Positions 3,030 to 60,875 of a DNA stretch of 64,000 nucleotides are shown here, piece by piece. The position numbers were made by a program, and so were the translations under genes. Numbering within the stretch: position 1 is the first letter of the stretch; each line of letters starts with the position of its first letter. The notes beneath the pieces were generated by a model, which searched no databases, was not told where the DNA came from, and saw only the letters and a list, made by a program, of their open reading frames with translations. The DNA is from an uncultured Spirochaetales bacterium (GTDB lineage Bacteria > Spirochaetota > Spirochaetia > DSM-27196 > DATKUC01), in the NCBI GenBank assembly GCA_964553615.1, contig CAZKMA010000021.1, forward strand, positions 4,402-68,401, read 5' to 3'.

Positions 3030-3067
3030 GGGCCGATCGGCGAAACGCCGACCGGCCCATTTTTTTT
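3030..3067 (+). terminator. Rho-independent terminator after wrbA
   Basis: A 13-bp GC-rich stem (gggccgatcggcg / cgccgaccggccc, one mismatch) with loop aaa, followed by a T8 run at 3060-3067. Confidence 0.85.
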
Positions 3068-3127
3068 CCGAAGGTCTTCGGCACGCCGCTCTTGGCCAGT
3101 TCCGAAGTCATCTGCTACTATCAATTC

Positions 3128-8410: not shown

Positions 8411-8473
8411 ATACGCTCGGGGAAGGTGATAGGATGTTCACCATAGAGTCCGTTAGTGGCAAAAGGAGAAATC

Positions 8474-8815
8474 ATGGGGTCGGTTCCTTCCGCGGCTGCA
8501 CAGATCATGGTGACGGTAATTCCAATTGTTGCGATCGTCCTGGGATCTGCGGTTGTTTTTTTCTACCTCCTGTGGCGGCACAAACAGCGTATTCTCATGA
8601 TAGAGAAGGGGATGTCACCTCATCAGCCGTTCGATATGTTGTCTTTCAGTCTGCTGGCGGGCCTGCTGAATTTTGGTGTTGGGTTGGTGCTGTCGATCTT
8701 CTTCCTCGTGAAGGAGGGAGCGAGCTACAGCCTGCTGGGCGGACTCATACCGTTTTCAATTGGTTTGAGTCTTCTCGCATTCTATCGGGCGAAGCGGGCG
8801 AACAACGACAGATGA
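8474..8815 (+). CDS. small polytopic membrane protein (3-4 TM) preceding an ECF sigma factor
   Basis: The ATG at 8474 is preceded by AAAGGAG. The protein is hydrophobic (IMVTVIPIVAIVLGSAVVFFYLLW...LLAGLLNFGVGLVLSIFF...). Its stop overlaps the sigma start in ATGA (8812-8815). Confidence 0.65.
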   Translation: MGSVPSAAAQIMVTVIPIVAIVLGSAVVFFYLLWRHKQRILMIEKGMSPHQPFDMLSFSLLAGLLNFGVGLVLSIFFLVKEGASYSLLGGLIPFSIGLSLLAFYRAKRANNDR

Positions 8816-9372
8816 CTCCGGACAGGAATCCGGACATCGCGGATGTCGATATCGTAAAGAGAGTGGTTCAAGGAGAAACCGAACTGTTCCGGCATATCGT
8901 TACGCGATACCAGCGGCGTGTTATCGCCATGGGTATACGTTTTCTTCATAATCGGGAAGCGTCCGAAGACTATGCGCAGGAGGTATTCATCCGGGTCTAT
9001 CGCAATCTCCATACGTTTCGGGGCGAGTCGCGGTTCTATTCCTGGCTCATGCGCATTGCCTATCACATGGCAATCGACGCCAGCGCCTCCCGGAAACGGA
9101 CCGACAGCCTCGGGGACTTCGAACCGCAGGATGGCGCGGACACTCCCGAGCAACAACTGCTTCGGCGCCAGGCGGCGGGGGCCATCCGGGACGCAATGAA
9201 AGAGCTTTCTCCCTATCACGCAGTGTGCATTGACCTGTATTTCTTTTTCGATCTCCGCTACGAGGAGATCAGCAACATGACCGGTTATCCCCTCAACACC
9301 GTTAAGTCCCATGTCAGGCGTGCAAAGGTCAAGCTGAGGCAGATTCTCGACGATTCGGTATCGGAGGTATGA
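8812..9372 (+). CDS. ECF (sigma-70 family group 4) RNA polymerase sigma factor
   Basis: Region 2 (EDYAQEVFIRVYRNLHTFRGESRFYSWLMRIAYHMAID) and region 4 (EISNMTGYPLNTVKSHVRRAKVKLRQ) are both present. The longer track ORF from 8407 is rejected because it overlaps the membrane protein gene. Confidence 0.9.
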   Translation: MTPDRNPDIADVDIVKRVVQGETELFRHIVTRYQRRVIAMGIRFLHNREASEDYAQEVFIRVYRNLHTFRGESRFYSWLMRIAYHMAIDASASRKRTDSLGDFEPQDGADTPEQQLLRRQAAGAIRDAMKELSPYHAVCIDLYFFFDLRYEEISNMTGYPLNTVKSHVRRAKVKLRQILDDSVSEV

Positions 9373-14501: not shown

Positions 14502-16679
14502 ATGATGGAAAAAGGCGCGGCTATGCGACCCCGGCTTCTCCGCGGTGTTCTTATTGGAGCCGGGGCGGGAATCCTTGCGATCATTATCTGGTTGAGCGGA
14601 ATCCTTGCCGGTTTCGAATCACCGACCTGGGATGCGCGGGTCAGAATGTTCGCTCACCCCGATGCGGCAACGAGCCAGGTCGTTCTGATTCTGCTGGATC
14701 AGAACAGTTTCGACTGGGGCAAGAGCACGAACGGCTGGTCGTGGCCATGGCCACGCGAAGTCTACGGCGCAATTGTGGATTTCTGTAACCGTGCAGGTGC
14801 AAAGTCACTCGCGTTCGACGTGCTCATCGCCGATCCATCGTCCTACGGCGTTGCAGACGATCAGGCACTCGGAGCGTCGATCAAGGATTACGGTCGGTTC
14901 GTCGCAGCCGCGTTCCCGGGAAATGAAAAGGGAGGCGCCACCGCGTGGCCGAGTGGAGTACCGGTTCCGGGTCTCTCCGTCAACGGACTGCAAAGCTGGC
15001 TTTCCCCGTCCATTCAACCTGTGCTCCGTGACCCCTATGTCCTGTTTCCTATTCCTGAGATGGCGCGAAATAGCCGCATGCTGGGTGCCGCAAGCTTCAC
15101 GAAGGACCCCGACGGTGTGTACCGTCGCGGGAGACTCTTCACCCTCTTCGACGGGCGGGTCGTTCCTTCGATTGCTCTTGCCATGTACGCGGCGGCGGAC
15201 TCTTCCGTTCCACAGATCTCGATTCGTCCGGGGACCCTGGTGGTCGACGGCAGAAACATTCCGATCAACAGCACAGGGCAGGCTCTTCTGCATTATGTAA
15301 CCCGGACCAACACCCACAAGAGCTACTCCGCCGCGGCAATTATCCAGAGCGACATTCAGCTCCAATCGGGAGAAAAACCGAACATCGATCCGAAAGAGCT
15401 TGCAGGCAAGTATGTGCTGTTCGGGTTTTCCGCTCCCGGTCTGCTCGACCTCCGTCCTTCGCCGATCGATCCGATTGTTCCCGGTACCGAGATCCACGCG
15501 ACGATGCTCGACAATCTCCTGTCGAACTCGTTCATGCGCGACATGCCGGTCTGGGAGACCATGGCACTGTTTCTGCTCTTCGGAATAGCTGCCGGAGTAG
15601 CGGGATCGGTCGTCGCCGGTGTTGTTGCCACCCCACTGCTCTTTATCCTCGTACTCGCCGCGCCGGTTGGTCTGAGTTTTCTCTTTTACGGCGGCGGTGT
15701 GTGGATGCCGCTCATCGGGATGGAGCTCGGGGGCGTGCTCGCGCTCGTGGGTGCAAATGTCTTGAACTATGCCACCGAGGGGCGTCAGCGGCGCTACATC
15801 AAGAACGCGTTTCAGCAGTATCTGAGTCATGCAGTTATCGATCAGCTCATTGCCCATCCGGAACGCCTTACGCTTGGCGGTGAGCGTCGCGAGCTCTCGA
15901 TATTCTTTTCCGATCTGCAGGGATTCACCGGCATTTCCGAAGGTCTTTCGCCTGAAGAGCTCACCGCGCTCCTGAATGACTATCTTTCGGCAATGACCGA
16001 CATTATTCAGGAGGAGGGCGGCACCATCGACAAGTACGAGGGAGATGCCATTATCGCCTTCTGGAATGCTCCGGTACCTCAGGAAGACCACGCAATCCGG
16101 GCGGTTCGCGCTGCTCTCCGGTGTCAGGCGGCGCTCGCAGAGCTCAGGCCCGCATTCAGGGAGCGCGTGGGCAAGGACCTTTTCATGCGTGTGGGAATTA
16201 ACACCGGGCCCGCGGTCGTCGGAAATATGGGTTCTCACACCCGGTTCGATTACACGATGCTCGGTGACGCAGTGAACCTGGCGTCGAGGCTGGAAGGAAT
16301 CAACAAGCAGTTCGCCACCTACACCATGATATCTCAGGCAACTCTGAACGCCATAGACGGCGCGTTTCCCGCGCGCGAGCTTTCACGCGTAGCAGTGGTC
16401 GGGCGCAAGGAGCCGGTGGTCGTCTACGAGCCGATGTTCCAGGAGGAGTATGCGGCCGCCACGGAAAGTCTCGCCGCCTTTGCGGAAGCGCTTCCCCTGT
16501 TCTATGAAGGGCGTTTCCTCGAGGCGGCCGAAAAGTTCGAGGATTGCCCGGACACTGATCCCGCCGCGCGAATGTACGCGAAGAAATGCAGACAACTTGC
16601 CGAGCAATACGGCAGCACATCGACATCGGACGATCCGCCTTCCGACTGGACCGGCGTCTGGATCATGACGGAGAAGTAG
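14502..16679 (+). CDS. CHASE2 sensor domain-containing class III adenylate/guanylate cyclase
   Basis: An N-terminal TM is followed by a ~330-aa periplasmic region (CHASE2-like: ILLDQNSF...WPWPR), then three TM helices. The cyclase core follows (LSIFFSDLQGFTGISE...DKYEGDAIIAFWNAP...RVGINTGPAVVGNMGS..RFDYTMLGDAVNLASRLE). Confidence 0.9.
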   Translation: MMEKGAAMRPRLLRGVLIGAGAGILAIIIWLSGILAGFESPTWDARVRMFAHPDAATSQVVLILLDQNSFDWGKSTNGWSWPWPREVYGAIVDFCNRAGAKSLAFDVLIADPSSYGVADDQALGASIKDYGRFVAAAFPGNEKGGATAWPSGVPVPGLSVNGLQSWLSPSIQPVLRDPYVLFPIPEMARNSRMLGAASFTKDPDGVYRRGRLFTLFDGRVVPSIALAMYAAADSSVPQISIRPGTLVVDGRNIPINSTGQALLHYVTRTNTHKSYSAAAIIQSDIQLQSGEKPNIDPKELAGKYVLFGFSAPGLLDLRPSPIDPIVPGTEIHATMLDNLLSNSFMRDMPVWETMALFLLFGIAAGVAGSVVAGVVATPLLFILVLAAPVGLSFLFYGGGVWMPLIGMELGGVLALVGANVLNYATEGRQRRYIKNAFQQYLSHAVIDQLIAHPERLTLGGERRELSIFFSDLQGFTGISEGLSPEELTALLNDYLSAMTDIIQEEGGTIDKYEGDAIIAFWNAPVPQEDHAIRAVRAALRCQAALAELRPAFRERVGKDLFMRVGINTGPAVVGNMGSHTRFDYTMLGDAVNLASRLEGINKQFATYTMISQATLNAIDGAFPARELSRVAVVGRKEPVVVYEPMFQEEYAAATESLAAFAEALPLFYEGRFLEAAEKFEDCPDTDPAARMYAKKCRQLAEQYGSTSTSDDPPSDWTGVWIMTEK

Positions 16680-19146: not shown

Positions 19147-20094
19147 TCAAGTGGAGATGAGTGTATTGACGGCTTCCGTCGCTGCGGCAATCTGCGTGGC
19201 CGGGTCTTCGGGCAGGACACGAAAGGGCGTCCCCATCGCAGAGAGAAGGGAACCGTACGTCTCCAGTTGTTCTCCCGCGGAGCGTGGATCGATGAGAGTC
19301 AGGTCGTAGTGGTCGCGCTCTGCCGCCTGCTGAAGCAGAAGCAGGGTCCGTGAATCAATGTCCGGGAATCTCGCACGCGCCTCGACGCCGATGCGAAGTG
19401 CGGATGTCGCGATGATCAGCACGCGATCGGCCTGACGTGCGAGCGCAGCTTCGGATGCATGCTGGGCGCGCAGAATGATGGAAAGATCCGAAGGTTCTAT
19501 TGACCGGTTGTGGTATTTCTCCCAGAAAATCTGATAGGCAGGTACAAAGAGCGTTTCAAAATGCTGAGCCACCGCGTGCGCGAACCCATCGCTCTCTGAT
19601 ATTATCTGGACCCGTTTCAGGAAGTAGGGACGGACCGGTTCCGGGATATACTTCCAGTACCGCATAGGGGAAGTTCGAATATCGGTTGCCGAAACGGGGA
19701 ACTGCGTTCGTGACGGATCCACTGCAATGAATGTTGCCCCAAGATCTGAAGCAAGCTGTATTCCGTACTGTTCAGACGCAAATACGAAGGAAATGGGGCC
19801 GCTCACGTGCGATCGGATAGTGTCCGCCCAGATACCCGTTGACCCGGGAACATCCTTCCGTGCTTCCGGGACTGCTTCGGTAATATGGACCATCTGAACG
19901 CCCGGAAAGAGTTCCTTCATCCACGAGTATCTCAGGCTTCCGGGAATCGGTTCGTTCGGAAGGGTGCATACGAGTACCGTCAGCTCATCGCAATAGCTGC
20001 GTGCAAAGTTGACCAGGTAGAGATGCCCGTAGTGGGGAGGCATGAAGCGGCCAATGACCACGCCACGAGTGGGGGTGTGGGACGTTGTTTGCAT
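19147..20094 (-). CDS. nadR: NadR-type nicotinamide-nucleotide adenylyltransferase with degenerate ribosylnicotinamide-kinase-like domain
   Basis: N-terminal cytidylyltransferase motif GVVIGRFMPPHYGHLYLV (H-x-G-H). The C-terminal half aligns in layout with the NadR kinase domain, but the P-loop position reads IISESDGFA, with no GK[ST]. Confidence 0.7.
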   Translation of the reverse strand: MQTTSHTPTRGVVIGRFMPPHYGHLYLVNFARSYCDELTVLVCTLPNEPIPGSLRYSWMKELFPGVQMVHITEAVPEARKDVPGSTGIWADTIRSHVSGPISFVFASEQYGIQLASDLGATFIAVDPSRTQFPVSATDIRTSPMRYWKYIPEPVRPYFLKRVQIISESDGFAHAVAQHFETLFVPAYQIFWEKYHNRSIEPSDLSIILRAQHASEAALARQADRVLIIATSALRIGVEARARFPDIDSRTLLLLQQAAERDHYDLTLIDPRSAGEQLETYGSLLSAMGTPFRVLPEDPATQIAAATEAVNTLIST

Positions 20095-20139
20095 AACCGG
20101 TCAACTATAGTAACATTAATCCCGGGGAGGGGGAACATC

Positions 20140-21123
20140 ATGCACGAAGATCGCACATACCTTATTGGATTCGACCTCGGCGGTACGAAGATGCTCGGCT
20201 GCCTTCTGGACCGGAAACTCGACATCGTGGCGCGAAACAAACAGAAGGTTGGAGACGGTTCCAGCGCCGAGCAGGTGTTCACCCGGATCCTGAGCTGCAT
20301 TCACAATCTGCTCGAGACGGCGAAGGTCGACATTTCTCAAGTTGCAGGAGCCGGAGTAGCTATCCCCGGGCCTATCGATCTTGCGAACGGTGTTGTGCTG
20401 GAGACCCCGAACCTCGGATTCCGCAATTTTCCGCTGAAGAAGCGACTGGCTGCGGAACTTGGAATTCCCGTCATCCTTGAGAATGATGTGAACGCCGGGA
20501 CGTACGGCGAGTACGTGAAGGGGGTCGCAAAGGGTATGAAGCACCTCCTCGGCGTATTTCCCGGAACGGGGATTGGCGGCGGGATCATCATAGACGGGAA
20601 ACTCTATCGCGGGGCAACCGGCGGCGCCGGCGAGGTTGGCCATATGATCATACAGGTAGACGGCAGACTTTGCGGCTGCGGCCAGTACGGTTGCCTCGAA
20701 TCGGTTGCGTCCAAAACGGCAATCTCGAAGGATGCAGCAATGCTCGCCGCGACCGGCAGCGCGCAGACCATGGCCAAGCTCGCCGGAAGCGACATCTCGA
20801 AGATGAAGAGCAGTGTTTTTTCCAAAGCGATTGTCGGAGGCGACAAATCCATTGCACGTCTTGTAGACCGTTCCGCGAGCTTCCTCGGGATCGGGCTGGC
20901 CAATCTTGTGAACATTTTCAATCCCGAGGCAATAGTCCTTGGCGGCGGACTCGTTGAGCGATTCGGGAAATCGTACGTGGCGATTGTTGAGCGGTCCATG
21001 CAGGAGCACGCTATGCCGTATCTGGCGAAGGGCGTGAAGCTTCTGGAAGCACAACTGGGCGATGATGCGGTGGCGATTGGAGTCGGATCGCTCCTGTCGG
21101 ATCATCTTGCCGATCGGAAATAG
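20140..21123 (+). CDS. ROK family sugar kinase (glucokinase-like)
   Basis: YLIGFDLGGTKM (ATP-binding DxGGT). ROK signature with zinc cysteines (GEVGHMII...CGCGQYGCLE). The ATG at 20140 is preceded by a G-rich RBS. Confidence 0.85.
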   Translation: MHEDRTYLIGFDLGGTKMLGCLLDRKLDIVARNKQKVGDGSSAEQVFTRILSCIHNLLETAKVDISQVAGAGVAIPGPIDLANGVVLETPNLGFRNFPLKKRLAAELGIPVILENDVNAGTYGEYVKGVAKGMKHLLGVFPGTGIGGGIIIDGKLYRGATGGAGEVGHMIIQVDGRLCGCGQYGCLESVASKTAISKDAAMLAATGSAQTMAKLAGSDISKMKSSVFSKAIVGGDKSIARLVDRSASFLGIGLANLVNIFNPEAIVLGGGLVERFGKSYVAIVERSMQEHAMPYLAKGVKLLEAQLGDDAVAIGVGSLLSDHLADRK

Positions 21124-21134: not shown

Positions 21135-22685
21135 ATGGAAGCGAAACGTCCGCACGGCTACAAGACAGTAGCGGTCATCGATATCGGCTCGACGGCAATC
21201 CGCATGGTCATAGCGGAGATCGACCCGGAAGGGGACTGGCGAAGGCTTGACCGGGCAGCGAAACCGCTCCCGCTCGGACGGGATGTATTCATGTCCGGAT
21301 ACCTCAGCCGGGAAACAATGCTCGGGGCGGTGAAAATTCTGACCGGATTTCTGGAACTGCTGTCCGGCTGGCACATAAGCCCCAGAGACGTGCGGGTAAT
21401 TGCGACCAGTGCCATCCGCGAGGCACGGAATCGGGATACCTTTGTTGACAGGGTTTCCATCCGGACCGGACTCCGTATCAACATCATAGAAGGCGTCGAA
21501 GAGAACCATCTCACCTATCTCGCGGTCCAGCATGCCGTAACCAACATGCAGGGACCGTTCGCCCGTTCGAGCTCCCTGATCATCGAGGTCGGTGGCGGGA
21601 CGACCGAGGTCATGATGCTGGATCGAGGAAAGATGGTCGCGGCGCACTCTTTCCGCATCGGGACTGTACGGATCGAACAGACGGTGAGGCCACGCTGGGA
21701 ATCCGGAAGCCAGATGGAAGAGTATCTCCGCGAAAATCTTCGGGGAACTCTGGAGATAATGAACACGGAGTTGAAGCTTGCGCGCATCCACTACTTTGTG
21801 GCAGTCGGTGGAGATGCACGCCTTGCCGCCTCCAATGTTGGGCGTCAGGAAGCGGAACATTACTGGCTCATCGACAAGAAGGCATTTAACGATTTCCTGA
21901 CGGAACTCGAAGAGCTTTCGGTCGATCAGATTGTGAGCAAACTCGCTGTAACATATAACGAGGCGGAAGGACTCGTGCCGGCACTTGTCATCTATCGTCT
22001 TTTTCTCGAGGCCACGAGCGCTACCCAGCTCATTGTTCCGGACGTCAGTATCCGAGAAGGAATGCTCGTCAGTTTCGCGCTCGGAACCGCGAAGGATGTC
22101 GAACAGCAGCTGTATGGCCAGGTCATCACATCCGCGATGAGTATTGGCCGAAAGTATCATTCGGACGAGAAACACGCGCTGCACGTCCGGAATCTGGCAC
22201 TATCATTTTTTGATCAGTTCCAGGCCGAACACGGGCTGGACGGACACTCCCGCCTTCTCATGGAAGTTGCGGCCATCCTGCACGACATCGGGAACTTCGT
22301 GCGCGCGAGTGGCCACCACAAGCATGGGCAATATCTGGTCGCGAATTCGGAGATTTTCGGGCTGTCGCGGGACGATATACGGATCATCTCCAACGTAATT
22401 CGCTATCATCGAAAATCAATGCCGTTGGCATCGCACAGTACCTTCATCTCTCTTCGCCAGGAACAACGGATTGTGGTTCAAAAGATTGCGGCAATGCTTC
22501 GCATTGCCGACGGACTGGATCGCAGCCATCTGCAGCGCGTGAAGTCAGTCCGGATCGAGGTGAAGGAGGGCGATCTCCTGGTCCACTGTGAGAACCACGG
22601 AGATATCTCGGTGGAGAAATACGGCATGCCGGCAAAGGCACAGATGTTCGAGGATGTGTTCGGATACAATGTTGTGATCACATAA
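21135..22685 (+). CDS. ppx: exopolyphosphatase / GppA phosphatase with C-terminal HD domain
   Basis: Ppx/GppA ASKHA fold (VAVIDIGSTAIRMVIAEI...ATSAIREARN...EVGGGTTE) and an HD region (AAILHDIGNFV..SGHHKHG). Confidence 0.9.
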   Translation: MEAKRPHGYKTVAVIDIGSTAIRMVIAEIDPEGDWRRLDRAAKPLPLGRDVFMSGYLSRETMLGAVKILTGFLELLSGWHISPRDVRVIATSAIREARNRDTFVDRVSIRTGLRINIIEGVEENHLTYLAVQHAVTNMQGPFARSSSLIIEVGGGTTEVMMLDRGKMVAAHSFRIGTVRIEQTVRPRWESGSQMEEYLRENLRGTLEIMNTELKLARIHYFVAVGGDARLAASNVGRQEAEHYWLIDKKAFNDFLTELEELSVDQIVSKLAVTYNEAEGLVPALVIYRLFLEATSATQLIVPDVSIREGMLVSFALGTAKDVEQQLYGQVITSAMSIGRKYHSDEKHALHVRNLALSFFDQFQAEHGLDGHSRLLMEVAAILHDIGNFVRASGHHKHGQYLVANSEIFGLSRDDIRIISNVIRYHRKSMPLASHSTFISLRQEQRIVVQKIAAMLRIADGLDRSHLQRVKSVRIEVKEGDLLVHCENHGDISVEKYGMPAKAQMFEDVFGYNVVIT

Positions 22686-22699
22686 GGGCAAGTTTAATT

Positions 22700-24868
22700 A
22701 TGGAAAATGTAGTTCGCAGGTACAAGAAGCACGAAGGGGGCCGCTACTTCAATCGGGAGTTGAGCTGGATCGAGTTCAACCGTCGGGTGTTGTCCGAGGC
22801 TATTCGACAGGACATCCCCCTTCTGGAACGGCTTCGATTTCTCTGCATTGTGGCATCAAATTTCGACGAGTTCTTCATGGTCAGGGTGGCATCTCTGAAG
22901 CGGCAGATTCAGACCCGGAACAAGGTTGTATGTCCGTCCGGAATGAGCCCCGAAGAGCAGTTGCGCGAAGTCATACAGCGAGTCCGAGAAATGGTTGCAA
23001 CGAAGTATGATTGCCTGCTGAACGACATCATGCCGAAACTCGGAGATGCCGGCCTTCTGCTCAAGACACCGGAGACGTATTCGCCGCAACAGAAGAGATA
23101 TCTGGAGGAGCTGTTTCGGGAGGAGATCTTTCCCGTTTTAACCCCCGTCCGATGCGAGCTTGGCAAACCTCTTCCCTATTCGGGAAATCTCCGGCTTCAT
23201 GCGGCGTTTCTGCTTCGACCGATCGTACGCGAACATCTTCTTATTCCCGAAGCGGGGGAGCTTTCGTTTGCCATTGTGCAGATTCCATCCGGTATACCGA
23301 GGATTCTCTACCTGCCGGATTCTGAAGGCTCAGTCTCTTTCGCTCTGCTCGAACACGTGGTTGTCGAACATGCAGCCCAGCTGTTCCCGGGTTACGAAAT
23401 TGTTGAAGACATCTTCTTCCGTGTAACACGCGACGCCGACCTGGGCGTGGACGAAGAACGCGATGAAGACTTTGTCGAGGCGATGACTCAGGTCCTCGAA
23501 TCTCGCCGATCCGGAATGGCAGTACGATTGAGCCTGAACAAACCCACTGCACGCTTGCGAAACATCCTTACCGAGGCACTTGGCCTGGACCCGTCCGAGG
23601 TGTATGTCAAAACAGACCCGATGGATCTGAGTACCTTCATGGAGCTGGTGGAATTACCGGGCTTTGATCATCTTCGGAACGAGAAGTGGATTCCGCAGGA
23701 TTCGCCCTATGTTCCCGAGGAAAGCTCCATCTGGGATGCAATCAAGAAGCAGGACATTCTTCTTCATCATCCCTTCGAATCGTTCGGTCCCGTAATTCGT
23801 CTGGTGCGGGAGTCTGCCGAGGATCCGGCTGTTCTTGCAATCAAAATGACACTGTACCGTACCAGCGGAACGTCGCCTATTGTGCACGCGCTGGAGCTCG
23901 CCGCTGAAAATGGGAAACAGGTGACCGTTCTCGTTGAACTCAAGGCACGATTTGATGAAGAGCAGAATATCGAATGGGCCCAGCGGCTGGAACGCGCAGG
24001 GGTCATTGTGGTGTACGGCATTGCGCGCTTGAAAGTGCACGCAAAGGCGCTTCTTATTATCCGGCGGGAGGAGAAAGGGATAACCCGTTACGTCCACCTC
24101 GGCACCGGCAACTATAACGACAAGACCGCGCGACTGTACACCGATCTTGGCCTCCTGACCGCAGATGATGATCTCGCCTACGAGGTTGGTCTGTTCTTCA
24201 ATTCCATTACCGGTTATTCCGCAATTCCCGCACTCAGTAAGCTCGTCATGGCGCCCACAGCGCTGAAGGGACGGTTGCTGCAGCTCATTGACCGGGAAGC
24301 TCAGAGGTCGACTCCGGAAAATCCCGGGGTGGTTATCCTCAAGCTGAATGCCCTTGCGGATCCGGACATCATAGAGGCGCTCTATCGCGCATCGGGCCTC
24401 GGAGTCAGAATCTCTCTCATCGTTCGTGGAATCTGTATGCTCGTTCCGGGAGTGCAGGAGATGAGCGAAAACATTACCGTCATGAGCGTCGTGGACCGGT
24501 ATCTGGAGCATTCGCGTCTCTACTACTTTTACAACGGCGGAGCCGAGGAAATATTTTGCGGCAGCGCGGATCTCATGCCGCGGAACCTCGAAAGACGCGT
24601 GGAGCTGCTGTTCCCTGTCGAAGATGCCGGACTGAAGAAGCGTATCAAGAAGGTTCTGGACACCTACCTGACCGACAGCTCGAACTCTCACATACTCCAG
24701 AAGGATGGAAGTTACGTCAGACGGGTGCCGGGGAGTGGCCCGGCAAAGCGATCTCAGCAGGTGCTCTACGATGCCGCCCGCAGCAGGGCGGACATCGTAG
24801 CTCCGGTCAATCGGAAAGAGTTCAATGTTCGCCGCAAGCCTTCCGCCTCCGGCCGTGCGCATGTCTAG
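22700..24868 (+). CDS. ppk: polyphosphate kinase 1
   Basis: YFNRELSWIEFNRRVLSEA at the N-terminus. Two PLD-like HKD-type domains (KVHAKALLI, YLEHSRLYYF). Full-length PPK1 layout. Confidence 0.95.
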   Translation: MENVVRRYKKHEGGRYFNRELSWIEFNRRVLSEAIRQDIPLLERLRFLCIVASNFDEFFMVRVASLKRQIQTRNKVVCPSGMSPEEQLREVIQRVREMVATKYDCLLNDIMPKLGDAGLLLKTPETYSPQQKRYLEELFREEIFPVLTPVRCELGKPLPYSGNLRLHAAFLLRPIVREHLLIPEAGELSFAIVQIPSGIPRILYLPDSEGSVSFALLEHVVVEHAAQLFPGYEIVEDIFFRVTRDADLGVDEERDEDFVEAMTQVLESRRSGMAVRLSLNKPTARLRNILTEALGLDPSEVYVKTDPMDLSTFMELVELPGFDHLRNEKWIPQDSPYVPEESSIWDAIKKQDILLHHPFESFGPVIRLVRESAEDPAVLAIKMTLYRTSGTSPIVHALELAAENGKQVTVLVELKARFDEEQNIEWAQRLERAGVIVVYGIARLKVHAKALLIIRREEKGITRYVHLGTGNYNDKTARLYTDLGLLTADDDLAYEVGLFFNSITGYSAIPALSKLVMAPTALKGRLLQLIDREAQRSTPENPGVVILKLNALADPDIIEALYRASGLGVRISLIVRGICMLVPGVQEMSENITVMSVVDRYLEHSRLYYFYNGGAEEIFCGSADLMPRNLERRVELLFPVEDAGLKKRIKKVLDTYLTDSSNSHILQKDGSYVRRVPGSGPAKRSQQVLYDAARSRADIVAPVNRKEFNVRRKPSASGRAHV

Positions 24869-50481: not shown

Positions 50482-50510
50482 TTGACAGCGAAACAGCTTC
50501 CGAAGATAAT
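50482..50510 (+). promoter_or_regulatory. near-consensus sigma70 promoter for tRNA-Val (TTGACA-17 nt-GATAAT)
   Basis: TTGACA at 50482-50487 and GATAAT at 50505-50510, with an exact 17-nt spacer, about 40 nt upstream of the tRNA 5' end. Confidence 0.65.
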
Positions 50511-50725: not shown

Positions 50726-51547
50726 TTGGCAGATCAGGCATTGCGCGGCAAAGCAGTAGTTGTGACCGGTTCGAGCCGCGGCATTGGACGCGAGACGGCA
50801 CTTCGTTTGGGACTGCTCGGTGCCGGTGTCGTCATAAACGGCCGTGATACGGCTGTGCTCGAAAGGTCACGGGATTATCTTCTCCAACACGGCGTAGATG
50901 TGAATGTCTGCCAGGGCGATGTGACCAATCCTGAGGACTGTCGACGGCTGGTAGAGACGTGCGTAACCCGCTATGGAAGACTCGATGTATTGGTAAACAA
51001 CGCGGGAGTATCCATGCGAGGCACGTTTTCCGACCTCGTTCCTGAGGTGGTCGATCGCGTGTTGACCACAAACATTGCCGGAGCAGTGCTTCCATCCGTT
51101 GCTGCAATGTCCGAGCTCCGCAGGTCCGGCGGCTCGATCGTCTTCATCTCAAGTCTCGCGGCACTGCGCGGTTTCCCCGGAGTCTCTATCTACTCGGCGG
51201 CAAAGATGTCACTGACCGCAATTGCCCAATCCCTCGAAGCTGAGTTGTATGGTTCGGGCGTCCATGTCGGGATCGTCTATCTCGGTTTCACCGAGAATGA
51301 TCCCGAAAAGCGTTCCCTCTCCTCCGACGGATCGGAGATTTCCGTTCGGAGGAGGGCGCACATGACACAGGCTCAGGCTGCCGAACGTATTGTCAGCCTG
51401 GTGCTCCGGAGGAAACGGACTAGTGTCCTGACCATCGAGGGCCGACTTCTGGGTTTGCTTCAGAGGATGTTCCCGCGGCTCGTTCAGTTTGTCATGAACC
51501 GGTCCGGGGGGAAGATTCACCTGGAGGCAAACCATGACCGACCTTGA
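50726..51547 (+). CDS. short-chain dehydrogenase/reductase (SDR)
   Basis: TTG start. VVVTGSSRGIGRETA (TGxxxGxG), NNAG, and catalytic S...YSAAK. Confidence 0.85.
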   Translation: MADQALRGKAVVVTGSSRGIGRETALRLGLLGAGVVINGRDTAVLERSRDYLLQHGVDVNVCQGDVTNPEDCRRLVETCVTRYGRLDVLVNNAGVSMRGTFSDLVPEVVDRVLTTNIAGAVLPSVAAMSELRRSGGSIVFISSLAALRGFPGVSIYSAAKMSLTAIAQSLEAELYGSGVHVGIVYLGFTENDPEKRSLSSDGSEISVRRRAHMTQAQAAERIVSLVLRRKRTSVLTIEGRLLGLLQRMFPRLVQFVMNRSGGKIHLEANHDRP

Positions 51548-53066
51548 CAGTTGGATTGCAGATCGCACCTTTCATCACTCACAGTTTCAAAATGTTGGTG
51601 ATCTTGTTGCCCGGAAGGAGGCTCTCGGGGTCACCATTAGCCTCTGTTTCCCCGCGTTGAACGAAGAAAAGACCATTGGCCGGGAGATTCGCGTGCTGAA
51701 GCGTGAGTTTATGGAGCGCCATCGCCTGATCGACGAGATTGGCGTTGTGGACAGTGGCAGCACCGATCGGACGCGAGAGACAAGTGAGCGCGCCGGTGCG
51801 ACAGTATTCCTTGCTTCGGACTATCTCCCCGAGTTTGGACCCCGACGGGGAAAAGGCGAGAATCTCTGGAAGAGTCTCTATCTCTTTTCCGGCGATATTA
51901 TTGTGTGGGTTGATTCCGATATCCGGAATATTCATCCAAAGTTTGTTTACGGCCTGCTTGGACCTCTTCTGGAATATCCGGAGATAGGCTACGTGAAGGC
52001 GTTCTATCGTCGTCCTGTTCAGTCCGGCAGACGGATGGTTCCTGGAGGCGGCCGCGTAACCGAGCTGCTGGTTCGACCGTTTCTCAATCTTCTCTACCCC
52101 GACCTGGCGCTTCTCGCGCAGCCGCTTTCCGGCGAATATGCGGGCCGTCGGGCAATTCTCGAGCAGGTACCGTTTTTCAGCGGGTACGGCGTCGAGATCG
52201 GGCTTCTCATTGACATTGAACACCGGTTCGGGTTGCGGGCAATGGCACAGGTGGACATGGACGAGCGCGTTCACCGGAATCAAAATATTGAGAGTCTGCG
52301 CCGAATGTCCTACGTCATTCTCTCGGTGCTCATTAAGCGGTCGGAGCAGCTCGGCAAGCTTGCGCTGCTCGAAGGACTCGGGCACCAGATGAACATCGTA
52401 CAGCGCCAGGGAACGCACTATCTTCGTGCAACCGAGGAGGTGCACGGCGTCGAGCGTCCACCAATGATTACGGTGCATTCGTATCAGGAGCAGCGTGGCA
52501 TCCAGGAAGACGACACCACATTGATCGGAACCTTCATACAGTCCAATTCGACCATCGTTCCCGCAATCAGTGATCTTCTGGACACCGCCATTGTTCGACT
52601 CACCCTGTCCGCATCCGAGCGGGACGCGGCGCTCGGCGAACTCGTCGACCTTGTTCCCGACGATGTTCTGACCGGCAGTCGTTCACGGATTCTCGCCGGG
52701 CTGCTCGAGCGGGAAGAGCGGATGACAACCGGAGTAGGGCAGGGACTCGCGATACCGCACCTGGTCAGTTCGGAGATCCGTTCGCTGACCCTGGTAATTG
52801 GCGCTTCATCCACGGGGGTGGATTTCAACTCCCTGGACCAGATCCCGGTGAAGCTCATCTTCGTCATTCTTGCACCCGAAAACATGCGTTCCCGGTATCT
52901 GCAGGTTCTCGCGGGGCTTGCCCGACTCCTGCGGGAGGAGCAGATAGTTCAACGGGCGTTGACTTCTTCAACTGCAGAAGAGCTCATTGCTCTCATGAAA
53001 AAGTATGAGGCGCTCATCCGCCTGAAACGTGAGCTCGAACCGGGATCGCCCTCCCCGGGAACATAA
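51534..53066 (+). CDS. gpgS: glucosyl-3-phosphoglycerate synthase-like GT81 glycosyltransferase fused to a PTS EIIA(Ntr/Fru)-type domain
   Basis: N-terminal 330 aa: ISLCFPALNEE...RGKGENLWKSL...IIVWVDSDI...VKAFYRRP...GGGRVTELLVRPFLNLLYPDLA...QPLSGEYAGRR...GYGVEIGLLID (GpgS blocks, DxD). C-terminal 150 aa: TGVGQGLAIPH...VKLIFVILAP (PTS_EIIA_2 with the phosphorylatable His). It overlaps the SDR gene by 14 nt. Confidence 0.75.
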   Translation: MTDLDSWIADRTFHHSQFQNVGDLVARKEALGVTISLCFPALNEEKTIGREIRVLKREFMERHRLIDEIGVVDSGSTDRTRETSERAGATVFLASDYLPEFGPRRGKGENLWKSLYLFSGDIIVWVDSDIRNIHPKFVYGLLGPLLEYPEIGYVKAFYRRPVQSGRRMVPGGGRVTELLVRPFLNLLYPDLALLAQPLSGEYAGRRAILEQVPFFSGYGVEIGLLIDIEHRFGLRAMAQVDMDERVHRNQNIESLRRMSYVILSVLIKRSEQLGKLALLEGLGHQMNIVQRQGTHYLRATEEVHGVERPPMITVHSYQEQRGIQEDDTTLIGTFIQSNSTIVPAISDLLDTAIVRLTLSASERDAALGELVDLVPDDVLTGSRSRILAGLLEREERMTTGVGQGLAIPHLVSSEIRSLTLVIGASSTGVDFNSLDQIPVKLIFVILAPENMRSRYLQVLAGLARLLREEQIVQRALTSSTAEELIALMKKYEALIRLKRELEPGSPSPGT

Positions 53067-53186: not shown

Positions 53187-53381
53187 ATGAACGATGCAAT
53201 CGTTTATATGGAAGGCACCGAAAAGTCCTTTCCCGGTGTTCATGATCTCGATAATTGTCGTTTCGAGTTGCTTCCCGGAGAGGGCCATGCGCCGGTGCGC
53301 CGGTTTGTCGACACCGGTTTCCACTGGTACGGCAAGACCAACATAGACGATTCTCCAATCAAGTCACTTCTCTATAACTGA
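53187..53381 (+). pseudogene. relic of a sugar-type ABC transporter ATPase (N-terminal ~35 aa recognisable, Walker A lost)
   Basis: IVYMEGTEKSFPGVHDLDNCRFELLPGEGHAPV parallels the RbsA/MglA-type start L.M.GI.KSFPGV.ALDNV...L.PGE.HAL.GENGAGKST. The sequence then diverges and stops after 64 codons. It lies in an AT-rich patch. Confidence 0.5.
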
Positions 53382-53403: not shown

Positions 53404-53438
53404 GGGCTGTCCGGTTTATTCCGGGCAGCCCCTTTTTT
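53404..53438 (+). terminator. Rho-independent terminator after the relic ORF
   Basis: Stem gggctgtccgg / ccgggcagccc (11 bp, one G-U pair) with loop tttatt, then a T6 run at 53433-53438. Confidence 0.75.
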
Positions 53439-53593
53439 CGGCTTGCTGCGTGTGCGCGGCATCCGGCTCCGGGCGAAGCCGCGCCTTGCAGGGCGGTCCA
53501 TCCGTGAGCAGGAGCTCCAACAGGAATCATGGACATGTTTTCCGGAAATGCATCACAAAAATCCCGTCACGTGCGTCTTATACTGGGAAGACA

Positions 53594-54145
53594 ATGAATG
53601 CAGACAATGACCACGACATGACACGTTCACGAATTGAGAAAACGTACCGCGAAGGCAGGAAGGGTTTCCTGCGCCGCGCGCGGCGTGCAGCCGGGTCACT
53701 GGTAGATGCGGAGGATGTTGTTCAGGATGCGTTTCTGGCGGCACTTGCCAACATCGACGCGCTGACTCTCGTGAACAACGCAACCTCGTGGGTCTACACC
53801 GCAATACGGAATCGAGCAATCGATTTGTGGAGACGCAGCAGGACCCGGGAGGCGTCGGGGCAAATTGACATTGCCGACGAGACGCTCTCGGAAATAGCGT
53901 TTGCCACCGGGCTTCGTCCAGACGACGCATTCATTCTGGGGGAACTCTCGGATGCGCTTGTGGATGCGATAGACGCGCTGCCTGAACCGCAGCGGGCGGT
54001 TATCCATGCACAGGTATTTGAAGGAACAACGTTTCGAGAGATTTCTGAGCAATCCGGGATTCCGATTGAGACATTGGCGGCCCGAAAGCGCGCTGCAGTG
54101 CGTGCGCTGGGTCTGGCCCTTCGTGGCTGGATCGAGGAAGACTAA
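53594..54145 (+). CDS. ECF RNA polymerase sigma factor
   Basis: Region 2 DAEDVVQDAFLAAL...WVYTAIRNRAIDLWRR and region 4 LPEPQRAVIHAQVFEGTTFREISEQSGIPIETLAARKRAAVRAL. The ATG at 53594 is preferred over the track start at 53450. Confidence 0.85.
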   Translation: MNADNDHDMTRSRIEKTYREGRKGFLRRARRAAGSLVDAEDVVQDAFLAALANIDALTLVNNATSWVYTAIRNRAIDLWRRSRTREASGQIDIADETLSEIAFATGLRPDDAFILGELSDALVDAIDALPEPQRAVIHAQVFEGTTFREISEQSGIPIETLAARKRAAVRALGLALRGWIEED

Positions 54146-54656: not shown

Positions 54657-55412
54657 TTACACCGGCGCGAGATGGTCGTACTTTGTGAGCACCTTCAACA
54701 GATAGGCAAAGTCTTTGGGATACGGTGCCTCGAATGAACAATCTCGATCGAAAAGACGGAACGCAAGAGAGTGCAGATGAATTGATGGGCGCAGGATGAT
54801 TGCCCGCTCTTCCTCATCCACTGCTTTCCGGTACCCAGGCTTCAGGCGGGACAGGAAGGGAAACTCGCCGCGGTAGAGCGGATCGGCCAGGAGCGGGAAA
54901 CCCTCTCGCGTCAGGTGAGCGCGGATCTGGAGTCGACGGCCCGTAAGCGGCACACAGCTCAGCAGCGAAAAGCGCGAGGAGGACGCAAGCGTTGATACGA
55001 CAGTGGTGGCCGGTCGACCCTTGCGGGTGTCAACCACCGAACGGAAAACCTGCGTGTGGGTGGTATCCGACTTGACGGCGGTGAGTCGAACCGGCCAGAC
55101 AATTTCGTGGTCAACGAACGCAGACCGTCCCCATACGACTGCATGAAAGATCGCGGTAGTCTCCGACTTCCGGAATCGCTGGGCAAGGTCCTTGAAAACC
55201 GGAAAAGACCTGGCTGCAACCACAATTCCACTGATGTCCGTATCCACACGGTTGCAGAGTCTGCTCCCCGGTGCGTAGCTTCCGAGCAGCAAGGAGAGGT
55301 TCGGCGCACGTACGTCGTTTTCCGTGGAGATGGCAACTCCGGCGGGCTTGCTCAGGACGATCAGATCATCGTCCTCGTGAAGGATCATCTCTTCAATGCG
55401 CGGCTGTTTCAT
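54657..55412 (-). CDS. RluA family pseudouridine synthase
   Basis: ILHEDDDLIVLSKPAGV...RVDTDISGIVVAA (variant of HRLDxxTSG with the catalytic Asp)...LTGRRLQIRAH...LHS. Its start overlaps the amylosucrase stop (ATGA). Confidence 0.8.
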   Translation of the reverse strand: MKQPRIEEMILHEDDDLIVLSKPAGVAISTENDVRAPNLSLLLGSYAPGSRLCNRVDTDISGIVVAARSFPVFKDLAQRFRKSETTAIFHAVVWGRSAFVDHEIVWPVRLTAVKSDTTHTQVFRSVVDTRKGRPATTVVSTLASSSRFSLLSCVPLTGRRLQIRAHLTREGFPLLADPLYRGEFPFLSRLKPGYRKAVDEEERAIILRPSIHLHSLAFRLFDRDCSFEAPYPKDFAYLLKVLTKYDHLAPV

Positions 55413-57361
55413 ATTGTACCCCGGCGCATGAGCCAGACGGTCTGATACGGTTCCAGAACCAGCGGTTCGACTGCCGAATGCGGCGAGTTCGTAATAAGAT
55501 CCGTAAACGAAATTCCTTCTCCCTCCGCTCGCAGAATACTTCCCGGGAAGTTGATTTTCTGCTCGCCAAAATTCGCCAGCACGAACAACCGCGACGCAGC
55601 ATGTTCTCGGACAAAGCCGAGGACGTGAGGATTCCTGGTATCTGGAAACTGTGTCGGAACGGAAGCTGCAAACACCGGGTGACCTTTCCTTATCCGGATC
55701 ATCTGCTCGAGCCTGGTAAAGACTCTGCCGACCGGACTGTGAGGCTCGGCGCGGAGTCGGTCGCGCTCCGGATCGTATTTCGGGCGATGAACCCAACGTG
55801 AGTCGTGCGCCTTGACCGGGTCTTTCGTGAACGAGTAGTCATTGAGGGTGGCAAGTTCGTCTCCAAGGTAGATCAGCGGAATTCCGCCGACCGCGAGGAT
55901 GATGCTGTGAACGAGAATTATCCGGCGAACCGCGAGTTCGACCTCGACCTCAGTCTCTTCTGCCAGCGCTTTCTCGAGTCCCGATAGAGATGCGCAGGTG
56001 CCTGAAATGCGGCAGTCTCGTGTTTCGGGATTATACTGGAACGGCATTCCGCGCGCAAAGCTTCCCGGGAAAACACCCGTGTAAAAGTCGTTCAGAAACA
56101 TGCGGTGGTCGAAACCATTTTTCCCCATAGCGGCCGCGTCTTCGTCGGAAAAGGTCCAACCGATATCATCGTGACATCGCACGTAGTTGACCCACGAACA
56201 ACTGTTCGGAATTTCAAAACGCTTCTGCATCGAGTAGCGCAGTAAGTCTATCTCCCGCGTGGCGAGTCCCTCCCACAGGAGAGCCATGAGAAGCGGATTG
56301 TAAGAGAGGGCACATTCATCCTTGCTGATGTACTGTTCCACCTCATCAGGGTGCACAATAGCCTCGGACTTGAACATGAGCGACGGACAGGCAAGCGCTG
56401 AGACCGCGTTGAACGCCTGAATGAGCGTGTGCGCCTGCGGAAGATTCTCACACGTGGTGCCCTCCTCCTTCCATGTAAAGGCAAGCGCGTCCAGTCGAAG
56501 AACATCCACGCCGCAGTTGGCGAGGAAGATCATCTCCTCGCACATGCTGCGGAACACTTCCGGATTATGATAGTTCAGATCCCACTGGTAACTGTTGAAG
56601 GTTGTCCACACCCACTTCTGCACATCTTCACGGTAGGTGAAATTTCCACGCCGAACCTGGGGGAATATTTCCCGAAGGTTTTTTTCGAACCTGTCAGGCA
56701 TGGTCCTGTCCGGAAAGAGGAAATAGTAATCCTCGTAGGCCGGGTCGCCCTGCAGCGCTCGAACCGCCCACTCGTGTTCATCGGAGGTGTGATTGAAAAC
56801 AAAATCCACTACCAGGCTGATTTCTGCACCGTGGAGCTTATCCGTGAGCGTGCGAAGATCCGCTATGGTTCCGAGATTCGGTTGCACTGCGCGGTAGCTG
56901 GAGACTGCGTAACCTCCATCGTTTTCCCCTTCAGGACAGGCAAAGAACGGCATGAGATGGAGATACGTCACGCCAAGTTGCTTCAGGTAAGGAATGCGGT
57001 CTTGCATTCCTGCAAGGTCTTTGGCGTACAAGTCGACATAACAGACCGCACCGAGCATCTGCTCGGACGTGAACCATGACGGAGACTCCTCCCGAATACG
57101 GTCAAGAGATCTCAGCTCTTTCGGCCTTGCAGACCAACCATTCAGTGCGGTCTTGAGTATTCGTTCAAGGTGGTAGAAAAAGTCGAATTGATTTCCATAG
57201 AGTCCGAGGAGCAACCGGAACAGTCGTTCGAAGTGATGCTCGAGCCGTTGCGCAAATAGCTGGAAGCTTTGCAGCTCCGCTTCCGGCAGATTTTCTCCAA
57301 GGCGGGGCAGGAGGCGATCAAGGGTCCGTCGTGCATCGGGAGACATGACCCTATTAAACAA
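55409..57361 (-). CDS. amylosucrase (GH13 sucrose glucosyltransferase)
   Basis: Collinear with my recollection of Neisseria amylosucrase over the whole length: VCYVDL.A.DL.G...IPYL..LG.TYLHLMP.F.CPEG..DGGYAVSSYR, VVDF.FNHTS.EHEWA, TFNS.QWDLNY.NP.VF, LR.DA.AF.WK..GT.CENLPQAH, NYVR.HDDIGW. Confidence 0.9.
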   Translation of the reverse strand: MFNRVMSPDARRTLDRLLPRLGENLPEAELQSFQLFAQRLEHHFERLFRLLLGLYGNQFDFFYHLERILKTALNGWSARPKELRSLDRIREESPSWFTSEQMLGAVCYVDLYAKDLAGMQDRIPYLKQLGVTYLHLMPFFACPEGENDGGYAVSSYRAVQPNLGTIADLRTLTDKLHGAEISLVVDFVFNHTSDEHEWAVRALQGDPAYEDYYFLFPDRTMPDRFEKNLREIFPQVRRGNFTYREDVQKWVWTTFNSYQWDLNYHNPEVFRSMCEEMIFLANCGVDVLRLDALAFTWKEEGTTCENLPQAHTLIQAFNAVSALACPSLMFKSEAIVHPDEVEQYISKDECALSYNPLLMALLWEGLATREIDLLRYSMQKRFEIPNSCSWVNYVRCHDDIGWTFSDEDAAAMGKNGFDHRMFLNDFYTGVFPGSFARGMPFQYNPETRDCRISGTCASLSGLEKALAEETEVEVELAVRRIILVHSIILAVGGIPLIYLGDELATLNDYSFTKDPVKAHDSRWVHRPKYDPERDRLRAEPHSPVGRVFTRLEQMIRIRKGHPVFAASVPTQFPDTRNPHVLGFVREHAASRLFVLANFGEQKINFPGSILRAEGEGISFTDLITNSPHSAVEPLVLEPYQTVWLMRRGTI

Positions 57362-59875: not shown

Positions 59876-60306
59876 CGGATCACCTCTTTATATCGATCGT
59901 TGCGGGATTCCCGTATTCTATCCGAAATGGTAATACCGAGTAAGATCAGAAAACCCGTAACCGCGACAGCCACGATCCCCTTGACCCAGATGTCGGCTCT
60001 GTCCGTGGTGAACAGGGTAATAATCGCATAGACCAGCAGTAACACGTAGGAACCGATGAAGAGTCCGAAGCCGACCGAACTGCCGATCTTTCGCGTGGTC
60101 TTCTTTGCCACCGCATCGTACCACTCTACCGGTCTTTCGGGTGCAGTAGTGCTTTCCAGACGGCGGCGAAGTCTGAGCAACTCGACGTATTCGTTCCTCA
60201 GGTCATATGAGCCTTCCACCTGTGACATGACCTCCGCTATTTCCTGCTCCGGCAGCTCGTTGTCTACGAGCGCCTGGATCTTGAGCTTCAGTTCTTCGAT
60301 TTTCAC
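59872..60306 (-). CDS. membrane-anchored anti-sigma factor (no zinc motif)
   Basis: Overlaps both neighbours by 4 nt. N-terminal LVDNELPEQEIAEV anti-sigma-like helix and two C-terminal TM helices. Confidence 0.6.
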   Translation of the reverse strand: MKIEELKLKIQALVDNELPEQEIAEVMSQVEGSYDLRNEYVELLRLRRRLESTTAPERPVEWYDAVAKKTTRKIGSSVGFGLFIGSYVLLLVYAIITLFTTDRADIWVKGIVAVAVTGFLILLGITISDRIRESRNDRYKEVIR

Positions 60307-60875
60307 TGCGACTCCTCCTTCAGAAGGACTTTCTTCAGATTCATTCGCGCGTTGTACAACCGTGACATGACGGTTCCAACCGGAATCTCCAGAATTTCGG
60401 CCATTTCAGCATAGGTCGAATTCTCAAAATGCTTCAGAATGATGATTTCCCGATGCTCGCTGCTGAGCTCTCCGAGCGCCCGGTGAAGCGCAGCATTCTC
60501 CTGCTCGGCAACCAATGCCGCGTCAGGGTCCGGCGTAACGTCCGACAGAAGTGCATCCTGGTCTCCCAGGTTCACGGTGCGACTACGTCGTTTCCGGTGC
60601 GTTGATGTGAGGTTGCGGGCAATTCGGTACAGCCACGGGTAGAAAGGTCGACAGACTTCGAACGAGGCGAGCGCGCGGTAGGCACGATAGAACGCCTCCT
60701 GCGTAAGGTCCGCCGCGTCCTCCGGGTTGCCCGTAAGATAGTAAATCGCCCGGTGCAGGCGCGGTCCGCATTCTCGAACGAGCACGCCGAACGCATTGCG
60801 GTCTCCCCTCTGTGCCCGCTGGATGAGCTCCGACTCACTGAGTGCGCTTTTATCGAGCATCTGTGTGCTTGCCAT
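60303..60875 (-). CDS. ECF RNA polymerase sigma factor (RpoE-like)
   Basis: LIQRAQRGDRNAFGVLV...PEDAADLTQEAFYRAYRAL.SFE....FYPWLYRIARN (region 2). YAEMAEILEIPVGTVMSRLYNARMNLKK (region 4). Confidence 0.9.
   Translation of the reverse strand: MASTQMLDKSALSESELIQRAQRGDRNAFGVLVRECGPRLHRAIYYLTGNPEDAADLTQEAFYRAYRALASFEVCRPFYPWLYRIARNLTSTHRKRRSRTVNLGDQDALLSDVTPDPDAALVAEQENAALHRALGELSSEHREIIILKHFENSTYAEMAEILEIPVGTVMSRLYNARMNLKKVLLKEESQ

Follow-up and report, generated by a model that had tools for sequence, protein, structure and literature searches.

We found that the window, the whole 64-kb stretch of contig CAZKMA010000021.1 (assembly GCA_964553615.1) analysed here, carries on its forward strand a gene in which a GT81 glycosyltransferase (GT) domain of the glucosyl-3-phosphoglycerate synthase (GpgS) type is fused to a C-terminal EIIA domain of the phosphotransferase system (PTS), similar to the regulatory protein EIIA-Ntr (PtsN) of the nitrogen-related PTS (PTS-Ntr). 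We propose that phosphorylation of His409 in the EIIA domain would control the activity of the GT81 domain, a well-motivated reading to which we give a probability of roughly 60%. Direct fusion of a PTS EIIA to a biosynthetic glycosyltransferase would also be rare. Literature searches gave us no description of the fusion, which does not prove that none has been published, and a 2026 review of the PTS-Ntr mentions no fusions, glycosyltransferases, or compatible solutes; within the literature searched, the combination of this known enzyme with this known regulatory domain appears to be undescribed. Homologues are mostly labelled plain "glucosyl-3-phosphoglycerate synthase" in the databases, a name that hides the regulatory half of the protein, although a few JGI records mention a IIA component. 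An earlier reading of the same DNA, made from its letters without database searches (the sequence-only reading), had already described this fusion; the position that it gave for the open reading frame (ORF) is exact (Table 1), and its other descriptive statements are correct too.

The gene almost certainly encodes a genuine single polypeptide with the GT81 and EIIA architecture. The same 510-residue protein was called in two assemblies, on the ENA/NCBI contig and on a Logan contig, and a homology search listed 120 clusters, 113 of which are full-length (483-545 amino acids) and were used for the conservation counts given below. Both Pfam domains are present in at least 113 full-length homologues, which are 40-67% identical to the window protein and come from sources named Spirochaetia, Salinispira pacifica, Sediminispirochaeta, Eisenbacteria, and Calditrichia; the carrier of the window gene is probably a spirochaete of saline or anoxic habitats. 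Across these homologues the mean identity to the query is 63% in the GT part, 33% in the EIIA part, and 27% in the linker. An AlphaFold2 model built from the homologue alignment has a mean predicted local distance difference test score of 91.4 and a predicted template modelling (TM) score of 0.87 and is confident through the junction; the latter score suggests that the two domains would adopt a defined mutual arrangement, and no solved structure spanning both domains was among the Foldseek matches of the model. The sequence-only reading had pointed to a sequencing frameshift as the way in which two genes might have been joined falsely, and beyond the origin of the contig from a metagenome we found no support for an assembly or sequencing artefact of two adjacent genes. 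With an identical ORF in two assemblies, the same architecture and length in over 110 independent clusters of several phyla, a single clade of fused proteins, and a model that is confident across the junction, we consider an artefact to be ruled out for practical purposes, its chance being minute.

Judged by its motifs, the GT81 domain carries every residue block of the characterised glucosyl-3-phosphoglycerate synthases. NF010496, the NCBIfam model of GpgS, matches amino acids 3-315 with 371.5 bits against a cut-off of 262 and covers profile positions 4-306 of 307, and Pfam Glycos_transf_2 matches amino acids 36-168. The motifs P40-A-L-N-E44, G106-K-G-E, D127-S128-D129 (nt 51912-51920), G171-G-G-R-V-T-E, Q196-P-L-S-G-E-Y, G217-Y-G-V-E, and R245-x-H-R-N-Q are invariant or nearly so in the 113 homologues, and D127, D129, and H247 are invariant; the GpgS blocks and the DSD metal site of the sequence-only reading are thus located. 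The strings GGGRVTE, PALNE, and GKGE are identical to those of mycobacterial GpgS in the PDB alignments, and from the mycobacterial structures we take the first to be the 3-phosphoglycerate-binding loop and the other two to be nucleotide-sugar motifs. By sequence, the PDB matches include the Rubrobacter mannosyl-3-phosphoglycerate synthase (MpgS) 3f1y (E = 4e-66), 7pdo (E = 2.4e-64), and the Mycobacterium hassiacum and M. tuberculosis GpgS enzymes (approximately 1e-62 to 1e-64). By fold, Foldseek gave target-normalised TM scores of 0.86-0.93 to GT81 structures, including both mycobacterial enzymes.

These matches place the protein in GT81, and the sugar donor is a separate question. The hidden Markov model NF010496 leaves the donor unfixed because the Rubrobacter GT81 MpgS receives nearly the same score (353 bits), so that a match shows membership of GT81 and not the donor; this weighs against a simple assignment as GpgS, and we dropped the equivalog match as proof of glucose specificity. 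It is the R. xylanophilus MpgS (3f1y/3o3p), a member of the same family, that is the best-scoring solved structure both by sequence and by fold (Foldseek E = 1e-29), and the metal site reads DAD, as in the Rubrobacter enzyme, in roughly one half of the fused proteins. The window enzyme could accordingly be a mannosyl-3-phosphoglycerate synthase or a dual mannose/glucose enzyme, with mannosylglycerate as the regulated product, but we consider this unlikely. Identity is 41-44% to true GpgS enzymes versus 37% to the Rubrobacter MpgS, and in the PDB alignments PALNEE, DSGSTD, QPLSGEYAG, GYGVE, and HRN agree with GpgS and not with MpgS, which has PSRN, DADSED, GYAVE, and NRH and no EIIA domain. In addition, relatives cluster with MggA/MggS-like, GH13_18-like, and glucosylglycerate-hydrolase-like genes. 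Identity, motifs, and the gene context of relatives therefore favour glucosyl-3-phosphoglycerate, which is probably the product. Compared with GpgS of M. tuberculosis (Rv1208), M. hassiacum, and Rhodopirellula baltica, the window protein shares the GT-A fold, the nucleotide-sugar, metal (DxD, His), and 3-phosphoglycerate-binding motifs, and a score above the equivalog cut-off. It differs in about 195 extra C-terminal residues (linker and EIIA), which are present in no characterised or crystallised GpgS, and in that no gene for the glucosyl-3-phosphoglycerate phosphatase GpgP adjoins it.

These extra residues contain a PTS_EIIA_2 domain that matches PF00359 with 88.5 bits against a cut-off of 27 (E = 5.3e-25) over 141 of 144 profile positions; with the NF010496 match, both halves of the protein are above the cut-offs of their models, which settles the question raised in the sequence-only reading of whether GT81 and EIIA would be recognised at all. 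The closest structures by sequence are Neisseria IIA-Ntr (2a0j, E = 4e-14) and E. coli PtsN (1a6j, E = 2e-11), and Foldseek superposed the model on 2a0j with a TM score of 0.92 and a root-mean-square deviation of 1.5 Å; for both domains the profile and structure matches are much too strong to have arisen by chance. His409 (nt 52758-52760), the last residue of the LAIPH string for which a phosphorylatable histidine had been claimed, aligns with the phospho-histidine His73 of E. coli PtsN, and Arg393 (nt 52710-52712) aligns with PtsN Arg57. Among the homologues His409 is conserved in 112/113, Thr399 in 111/113, and Arg393 in 85/113, and every one of the 83 fused proteins with 44% or more identity to the query, the window protein included, has the signature RE..T..G.G.A[IVL]PH. 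Fold and active site are thus those of PtsN/EIIA-Ntr (1a6j, 2a0j), the counterparts of Arg57 and His73 both lying in a shared RE...TG.G.G.AIPH motif, and like PtsN the EIIA domain of the fusion would presumably regulate an enzyme and not pass phosphate to a sugar. Unlike PtsN, it is covalently joined to its presumed target, it has Tyr455 in place of His120, and it is encoded outside any rpoN-type operon. We tried Tyr455 as a mark specific to the fusion and dropped it, because tyrosine also occupies this position in 33/100 stand-alone PtsN-like relatives.

When amino acids 316-510 were searched against 1.84 billion cluster representatives, 2872 matches had E ≤ 1e-10. Three groups appear among the best 150 listed: members of the fusion family, many stand-alone PtsN-like proteins of about 150 amino acids (33-39% identity), and Na+/H+ exchangers of 770-900 amino acids with tandem C-terminal EIIA domains. 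The nearest EIIA modules outside the fusion family are found on such exchangers (P0123, P0126, P0127, and P0143; PF00999 with two C-terminal EIIA_2 domains), which are a second case of a PtsN-type module fused to a protein of ion or osmotic homeostasis.

The mechanism that we propose is as follows. The GT81 domain would move glucose from a nucleoside diphosphate glucose to 3-phosphoglycerate (3-PGA). This formation of glucosyl-3-phosphoglycerate would commit the pathway to glucosylglycerate, an anionic compatible solute, or to one of its derivatives, for instance mannosylglucosylglycerate. The phosphorylated HPr or NPr protein of a regulatory PTS would reversibly phosphorylate His409, whose state would report the phosphoenolpyruvate (PEP)/pyruvate ratio and, via an EI-Ntr-type enzyme, the glutamine/2-oxoglutarate ratio. 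Phosphorylation would alter the packing of the EIIA domain against the GT domain and thereby switch catalysis, and under combined salt stress and nitrogen shortage glucosylglycerate would take over from nitrogen-rich glutamate as the counter-ion of K+. The phosphodonor and the partner enzyme that dephosphorylates or elongates the product would be encoded elsewhere in the genome. PEP, the phosphoryl source of the PTS, lies two glycolytic steps downstream of the acceptor 3-PGA, and a PTS-type sensor would therefore carry relevant information. Because the Arg/His site is conserved, the EIIA domain may well still accept a phosphoryl group from HPr~P or NPr~P.

Published work is in line with this proposal. 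Glucosylglycerate builds up when nitrogen is limiting and, in salt stress, takes the place of glutamate in balancing K+ (PMC5381378), and the PTS-Ntr has been tied to carbon and nitrogen sensing and to the control of K+ homeostasis (PMC13104625). In Salmonella, the enzyme GlmS is regulated by EIIA-Ntr through direct binding (PMC5024086), and a passage of PMC2937029 that cites Gonzalez et al. (2005) describes PTS proteins without permeases in Treponema denticola. GlmS and the Na+/H+ exchangers with EIIA_2 domains follow the same principle, in that a PtsN-type module controls a protein outside the PTS, and the exchanger modules, the closest that we found, again stand in a context of ion and osmotic homeostasis. 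They differ in that GlmS is an amino-sugar enzyme bound in trans and the exchangers are membrane transporters, whereas here a cytoplasmic glycosyltransferase of compatible-solute synthesis would be controlled in cis. The conservation of His409 in 112/113 homologues, the canonical signature in the clade of the window protein, the confident two-domain model, and the nitrogen/K+ literature together strengthen the regulatory reading.

Several observations weigh against it. The domain misses both PtsN equivalog cut-offs, with 66.3 versus 138.7 bits for TIGR01419 and 47.6 versus 221 for NF008145, and for this reason we do not file it as a PtsN orthologue: it appears EIIA-Ntr-like in fold and motifs, yet no orthologue of PtsN. 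In the deepest fused branch the motif reads SG..T..G.N.AFFH, in which the arginine is lost and the histidine retained, and phosphorylation may therefore not hold for the whole family. The entire 64-kb window was annotated with Pfam and also searched by tblastn for the partner families. Pfam found no EI, HPr/NPr, HprK, or PtsN gene in it, and no HAD/MpgP-type or mycobacterial GpgP-type (His_Phos_1) phosphatase, where HAD stands for haloacid dehalogenase; by tblastn the GpgP, MggA, MggB, GH63, and PF04008 families were likewise absent from it, so the statement of the sequence-only reading that no glucosyl-3-phosphoglycerate phosphatase gene is visible nearby extends to the whole window. A phmmer search with three HPr/NPr queries gave no significant HPr-like ORF, either in the window or in the set of 87 GT81 loci that we compared. 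We also looked for the separate counterpart of the fusion, a stand-alone EIIA beside an unfused GpgS gene, with a largely negative outcome: of the 74 unfused loci, just two contain an EIIA ORF at a distance of up to 10 kb. In one of these loci, L034, the EIIA ORF lies 6.5 kb upstream of the unfused GpgS gene and belongs to a P-II/Mrp antiporter cluster. The regulatory reading remains at the level given above because no phosphodonor gene is present in the window or the 87 loci, the PtsN scores are below the cut-offs, and the donor sugar is not fixed by the HMM.

Some of the same observations would also fit an EIIA domain that has left phosphotransfer and now acts as a phospho-independent dimerisation, small-molecule-binding, or docking module, comparable to the cytoplasmic domain of Band 3 or to orphan EIIA_2-like domains. 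In its favour, the surroundings of the fused loci contain no phosphodonor gene, sequence change has been much faster in EIIA than in GT (33% versus 63% mean identity), the active-site motif is degenerate in the deepest branch, and the scores are under the PtsN equivalog cut-offs. Nevertheless, PTS genes are usually unlinked to their regulatory targets, the histidine is kept in 112 of the 113 homologues across phyla, and 83 of the 113, including the window protein, have both an intact AIPH motif and the counterpart of Arg57, a pattern that is hard to explain otherwise. We therefore think it unlikely that the domain is a non-phosphorylated module and keep to control through His409.

To learn how common the fusion is, a check that had been recommended with the sequence-only reading, we surveyed GTDB with one genome per species. 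At least 581 GT81 relatives were found, and the best 80 were analysed. Six of these 80 loci have the EIIA extension, and the other 74 encode unfused proteins of about 320 amino acids with a GT domain that is 50-58% identical; the fusion is a minority architecture among the GTDB species representatives, known all the same from at least 113 fused homologues. In a neighbour-joining tree of the GT domain with 119 fused, 74 unfused, and 2 reference sequences, a distance tree without support values, all fused GT domains fall in one clade, within which the sole unfused member, L051, groups as the sister of the Calditrichia subclade. The pattern is consistent with a single, ancient fusion that later spread across phyla, with perhaps one secondary loss. 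L051, on a contig labelled as a metagenome-assembled genome (MAG) of Candidatus Nanoarchaeia, has a bacterial-type HAD/GT4/GH13 cassette around its unfused GT81 gene; it may point to a secondary loss of EIIA, and the contig may be mis-binned.

What the fusion might mean more generally can be put as a "Rosetta stone" argument, namely that PTS-Ntr-type phosphorelays directly gate glucosylglycerate synthesis, a tentative generalisation to which we give well under even odds. If it holds, nitrogen status and K+/osmotic homeostasis, the best-known but mechanistically unconnected outputs of the PTS-Ntr, would meet in one enzyme. Unfused GpgS might then likewise be regulated in trans by free PtsN or HPr in other bacteria, such as cyanobacteria, enterobacteria, and mycobacteria, in which the control of glucosylglycerate under nitrogen stress stands unexplained. 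The way in which glucosylglycerate synthesis is switched on under nitrogen limitation and salt stress has been called elusive (PMC5381378), and the ultimate targets of the PTS-Ntr are still debated (PMC13104625). A conserved fusion of single origin connects these two questions in a concrete hypothesis that biochemistry can test. Among the carriers, at least Salinispira pacifica (WP_455381906.1) is in culture, and Eisenbacteria CP070702.1 also carries the fusion.

The gene context of relatives was compared by clustering the ORFs of the 87 loci and annotating representatives. Recurrent partners are a GT4 protein like mannosylglucosylglycerate synthase (NF041101, 232-251 bits over the full length, under the cut-off), a HAD phosphatase of about 310 amino acids between two GT4-like genes, sucrose-phosphorylase-like GH13 proteins (213-231 bits), and MGH1/GH63 glucosylglycerate-hydrolase-like proteins, which adjoin unfused relatives; in 11 unfused loci a His_Phos_1 phosphatase of the mycobacterial GpgP type directly adjoins GT81. 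Three fused loci (L007, L011, and L012) have the order GT4-like > HAD > GT4 > GH13 < GT81-EIIA, with GT4 genes of the MggS/MggA type and a GH13_18-like phosphorylase. In L013, at a contig end, only the GH13 gene is visible beside the fusion gene, and in Eisenbacteria the genes after the fused copy encode a second, GT81-like glycosyltransferase and an MscS-like channel. The GpgS/MggA/MggB pathway of Rhodopirellula baltica has been published, and gpgS/mggA/mggB homologues have been reported in Spirochaeta (PMC3736172). Because the cassettes of the relatives agree with this pathway, the family seems to be embedded in glucosylglycerate-type solute metabolism; this would thus apply to the GT81 family as a whole, and the window copy's own surroundings do not show it.

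Other neighbours of the relatives deserve mention. A constant member of the cassette of GT81, HAD, and MggS-like GT4 genes is a protein of about 470-550 amino acids (L007:4551-5960, L012:2967-4415, L050:11096-12751) with no significant Pfam or NCBIfam match or a sub-threshold match to Glyco_trans_4_4, which may be an uncharacterised GT-B enzyme of a mannosylglucosylglycerate-type pathway. A PF04008 "Adenosine_kin" gene of about 160 amino acids lies near five fused loci of two subclades (L006:14346-14828, L007:14914-15396, with similar genes in L010, L012, and L013) and near 0/74 unfused loci. Immediately upstream of GT81 and co-directional with it, 28 unfused loci (for example L015:1794-2978 and L050:8633-9925) have a gene for an M20/M28 peptidase-like (DapE-like) protein of about 390-430 amino acids, an unexpected partner for a GpgS gene. 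In L034 (2624-7558), from a Treponema sp. MAG, a P-II-like gene and genes for subunits of an Mrp Na+/H+ antiporter (MnhE, Proton_antipo_M) surround the stand-alone PtsN-like EIIA gene (3004-3471). One neighbour cluster, F13, was discarded, as it consisted of antisense ORFs of GT81 genes.

Table 1. Coordinates of the fusion gene, its domains, and adjacent features in the window
Feature	Position (nt)	Strand	Remarks
Sigma-70-like promoter candidate, TTGACA-17-GATAAT	50482..50510	+	11/12 matches, upstream of the SDR gene; consensus match only
Classical short-chain dehydrogenase/reductase (SDR) gene	50741..51547 (alternative TTG 50726)	+	268 aa from ATG; 273 aa from TTG
Shine-Dalgarno sequence GGAGG	51523..51527	+	6 nt before ATG 51534, within the 3' end of the SDR gene; read directly
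GT81-EIIA fusion gene	51534..53066	+	510 aa plus stop; ATG start, TAA stop
GT81 catalytic domain, glucosyl-3-phosphoglycerate synthase type	51540..52478	+	aa 3-315
Inter-domain linker	52479..52577	+	aa 316-348; poorly conserved, partly helical in the model
PTS_EIIA_2 domain, EIIA-Ntr type	52578..53003	+	aa 349-490
Small 64-aa ORF	53187..53381	+	gene call in public contig L001; between fusion gene and hairpin; no domain match on record
Terminator-like hairpin	53404..53431	+	11-bp stem with 9 G-C pairs, then a T run; consensus match only
GH13 amylosucrase-like gene	55409..57361	-	650 aa; Alpha-amylase E = 3.5e-43 and an Amylosucrase_C-like domain

In the window itself, the fusion gene follows an SDR gene (adh_short E = 4e-46; NF004825 208.8 bits, slightly under the cut-off of 215) whose 3' end overlaps its start by 14 nt, as had been noted from the letters, and the two are probably translationally coupled. 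An orthologue of this SDR in the same position is found only in L003, the closest relative, with 59.5% identity. We dropped the idea that this SDR generally accompanies the fusion, since the remaining SDRs encoded near fused genes have about 26% identity to it, no more than SDRs share in general; the linkage is lineage-specific. The promoter candidate and the hairpin bracket the SDR gene, the fusion gene, and the 64-amino-acid ORF, whose membership of the operon is uncertain, and the hairpin, a pattern match, is likely the end of the SDR-fusion transcription unit. Two promoter-like sites of this kind were found in the region versus 1.3 expected from shuffles. The amylosucrase that had been placed 2.3 kb downstream is the GH13 gene of Table 1, which lies 2343 nt from the fusion gene on the opposite strand. 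GH13 genes occur in 21/87 GT81 loci and are mostly of another, sucrose-phosphorylase-like type of about 570-590 amino acids; a functional link of the window gene through sugar supply or recycling is only suggestive.

The SDR gene and the missing phosphatase raise the question of the fate of the product. Glucosyl-3-phosphoglycerate might prime a larger molecule, such as a mannosylglucosylglycerate-type diglycoside or a polysaccharide like the mycobacterial methylglucose lipopolysaccharide (MGLP), with the SDR modifying an intermediate. This would be in keeping with the lack of a GpgP gene nearby, with the translational coupling of the SDR and its conservation in the nearest relative, with the MggA/MggB-like cassette of the fused branch of L007, L011, and L012, and with the priming of MGLP by mycobacterial GpgS (PMC3240985, PMC2581804). 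However, the SDR link is limited to one small lineage, the window contains no further glycosyltransferase or HAD partner, and no polysaccharide genes are adjacent; we regard a priming role as doubtful, and it would in any case be compatible with phospho-regulation through His409.

Other genes of the window are listed here as observations. Three genes for extracytoplasmic function (ECF)-type sigma factors are present (8407-9372, 53450-54145, and 60303-60875), the second of which comes directly after the fusion operon, with small ORFs behind it that could encode anti-sigma factors. A CHASE2-domain adenylate/guanylate cyclase gene (725 amino acids) is located at 14502-16679. A ppx (Ppx-GppA) and ppk1 (polyphosphate kinase) pair lies at 21135-24868, preceded by a ROK-family gene at 19885-21123; a preprint (10.1101/2021.10.15.464621) ties PtsN to the production of polyphosphate in E. 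coli, but nothing here shows a connection of the pair with the fusion gene.

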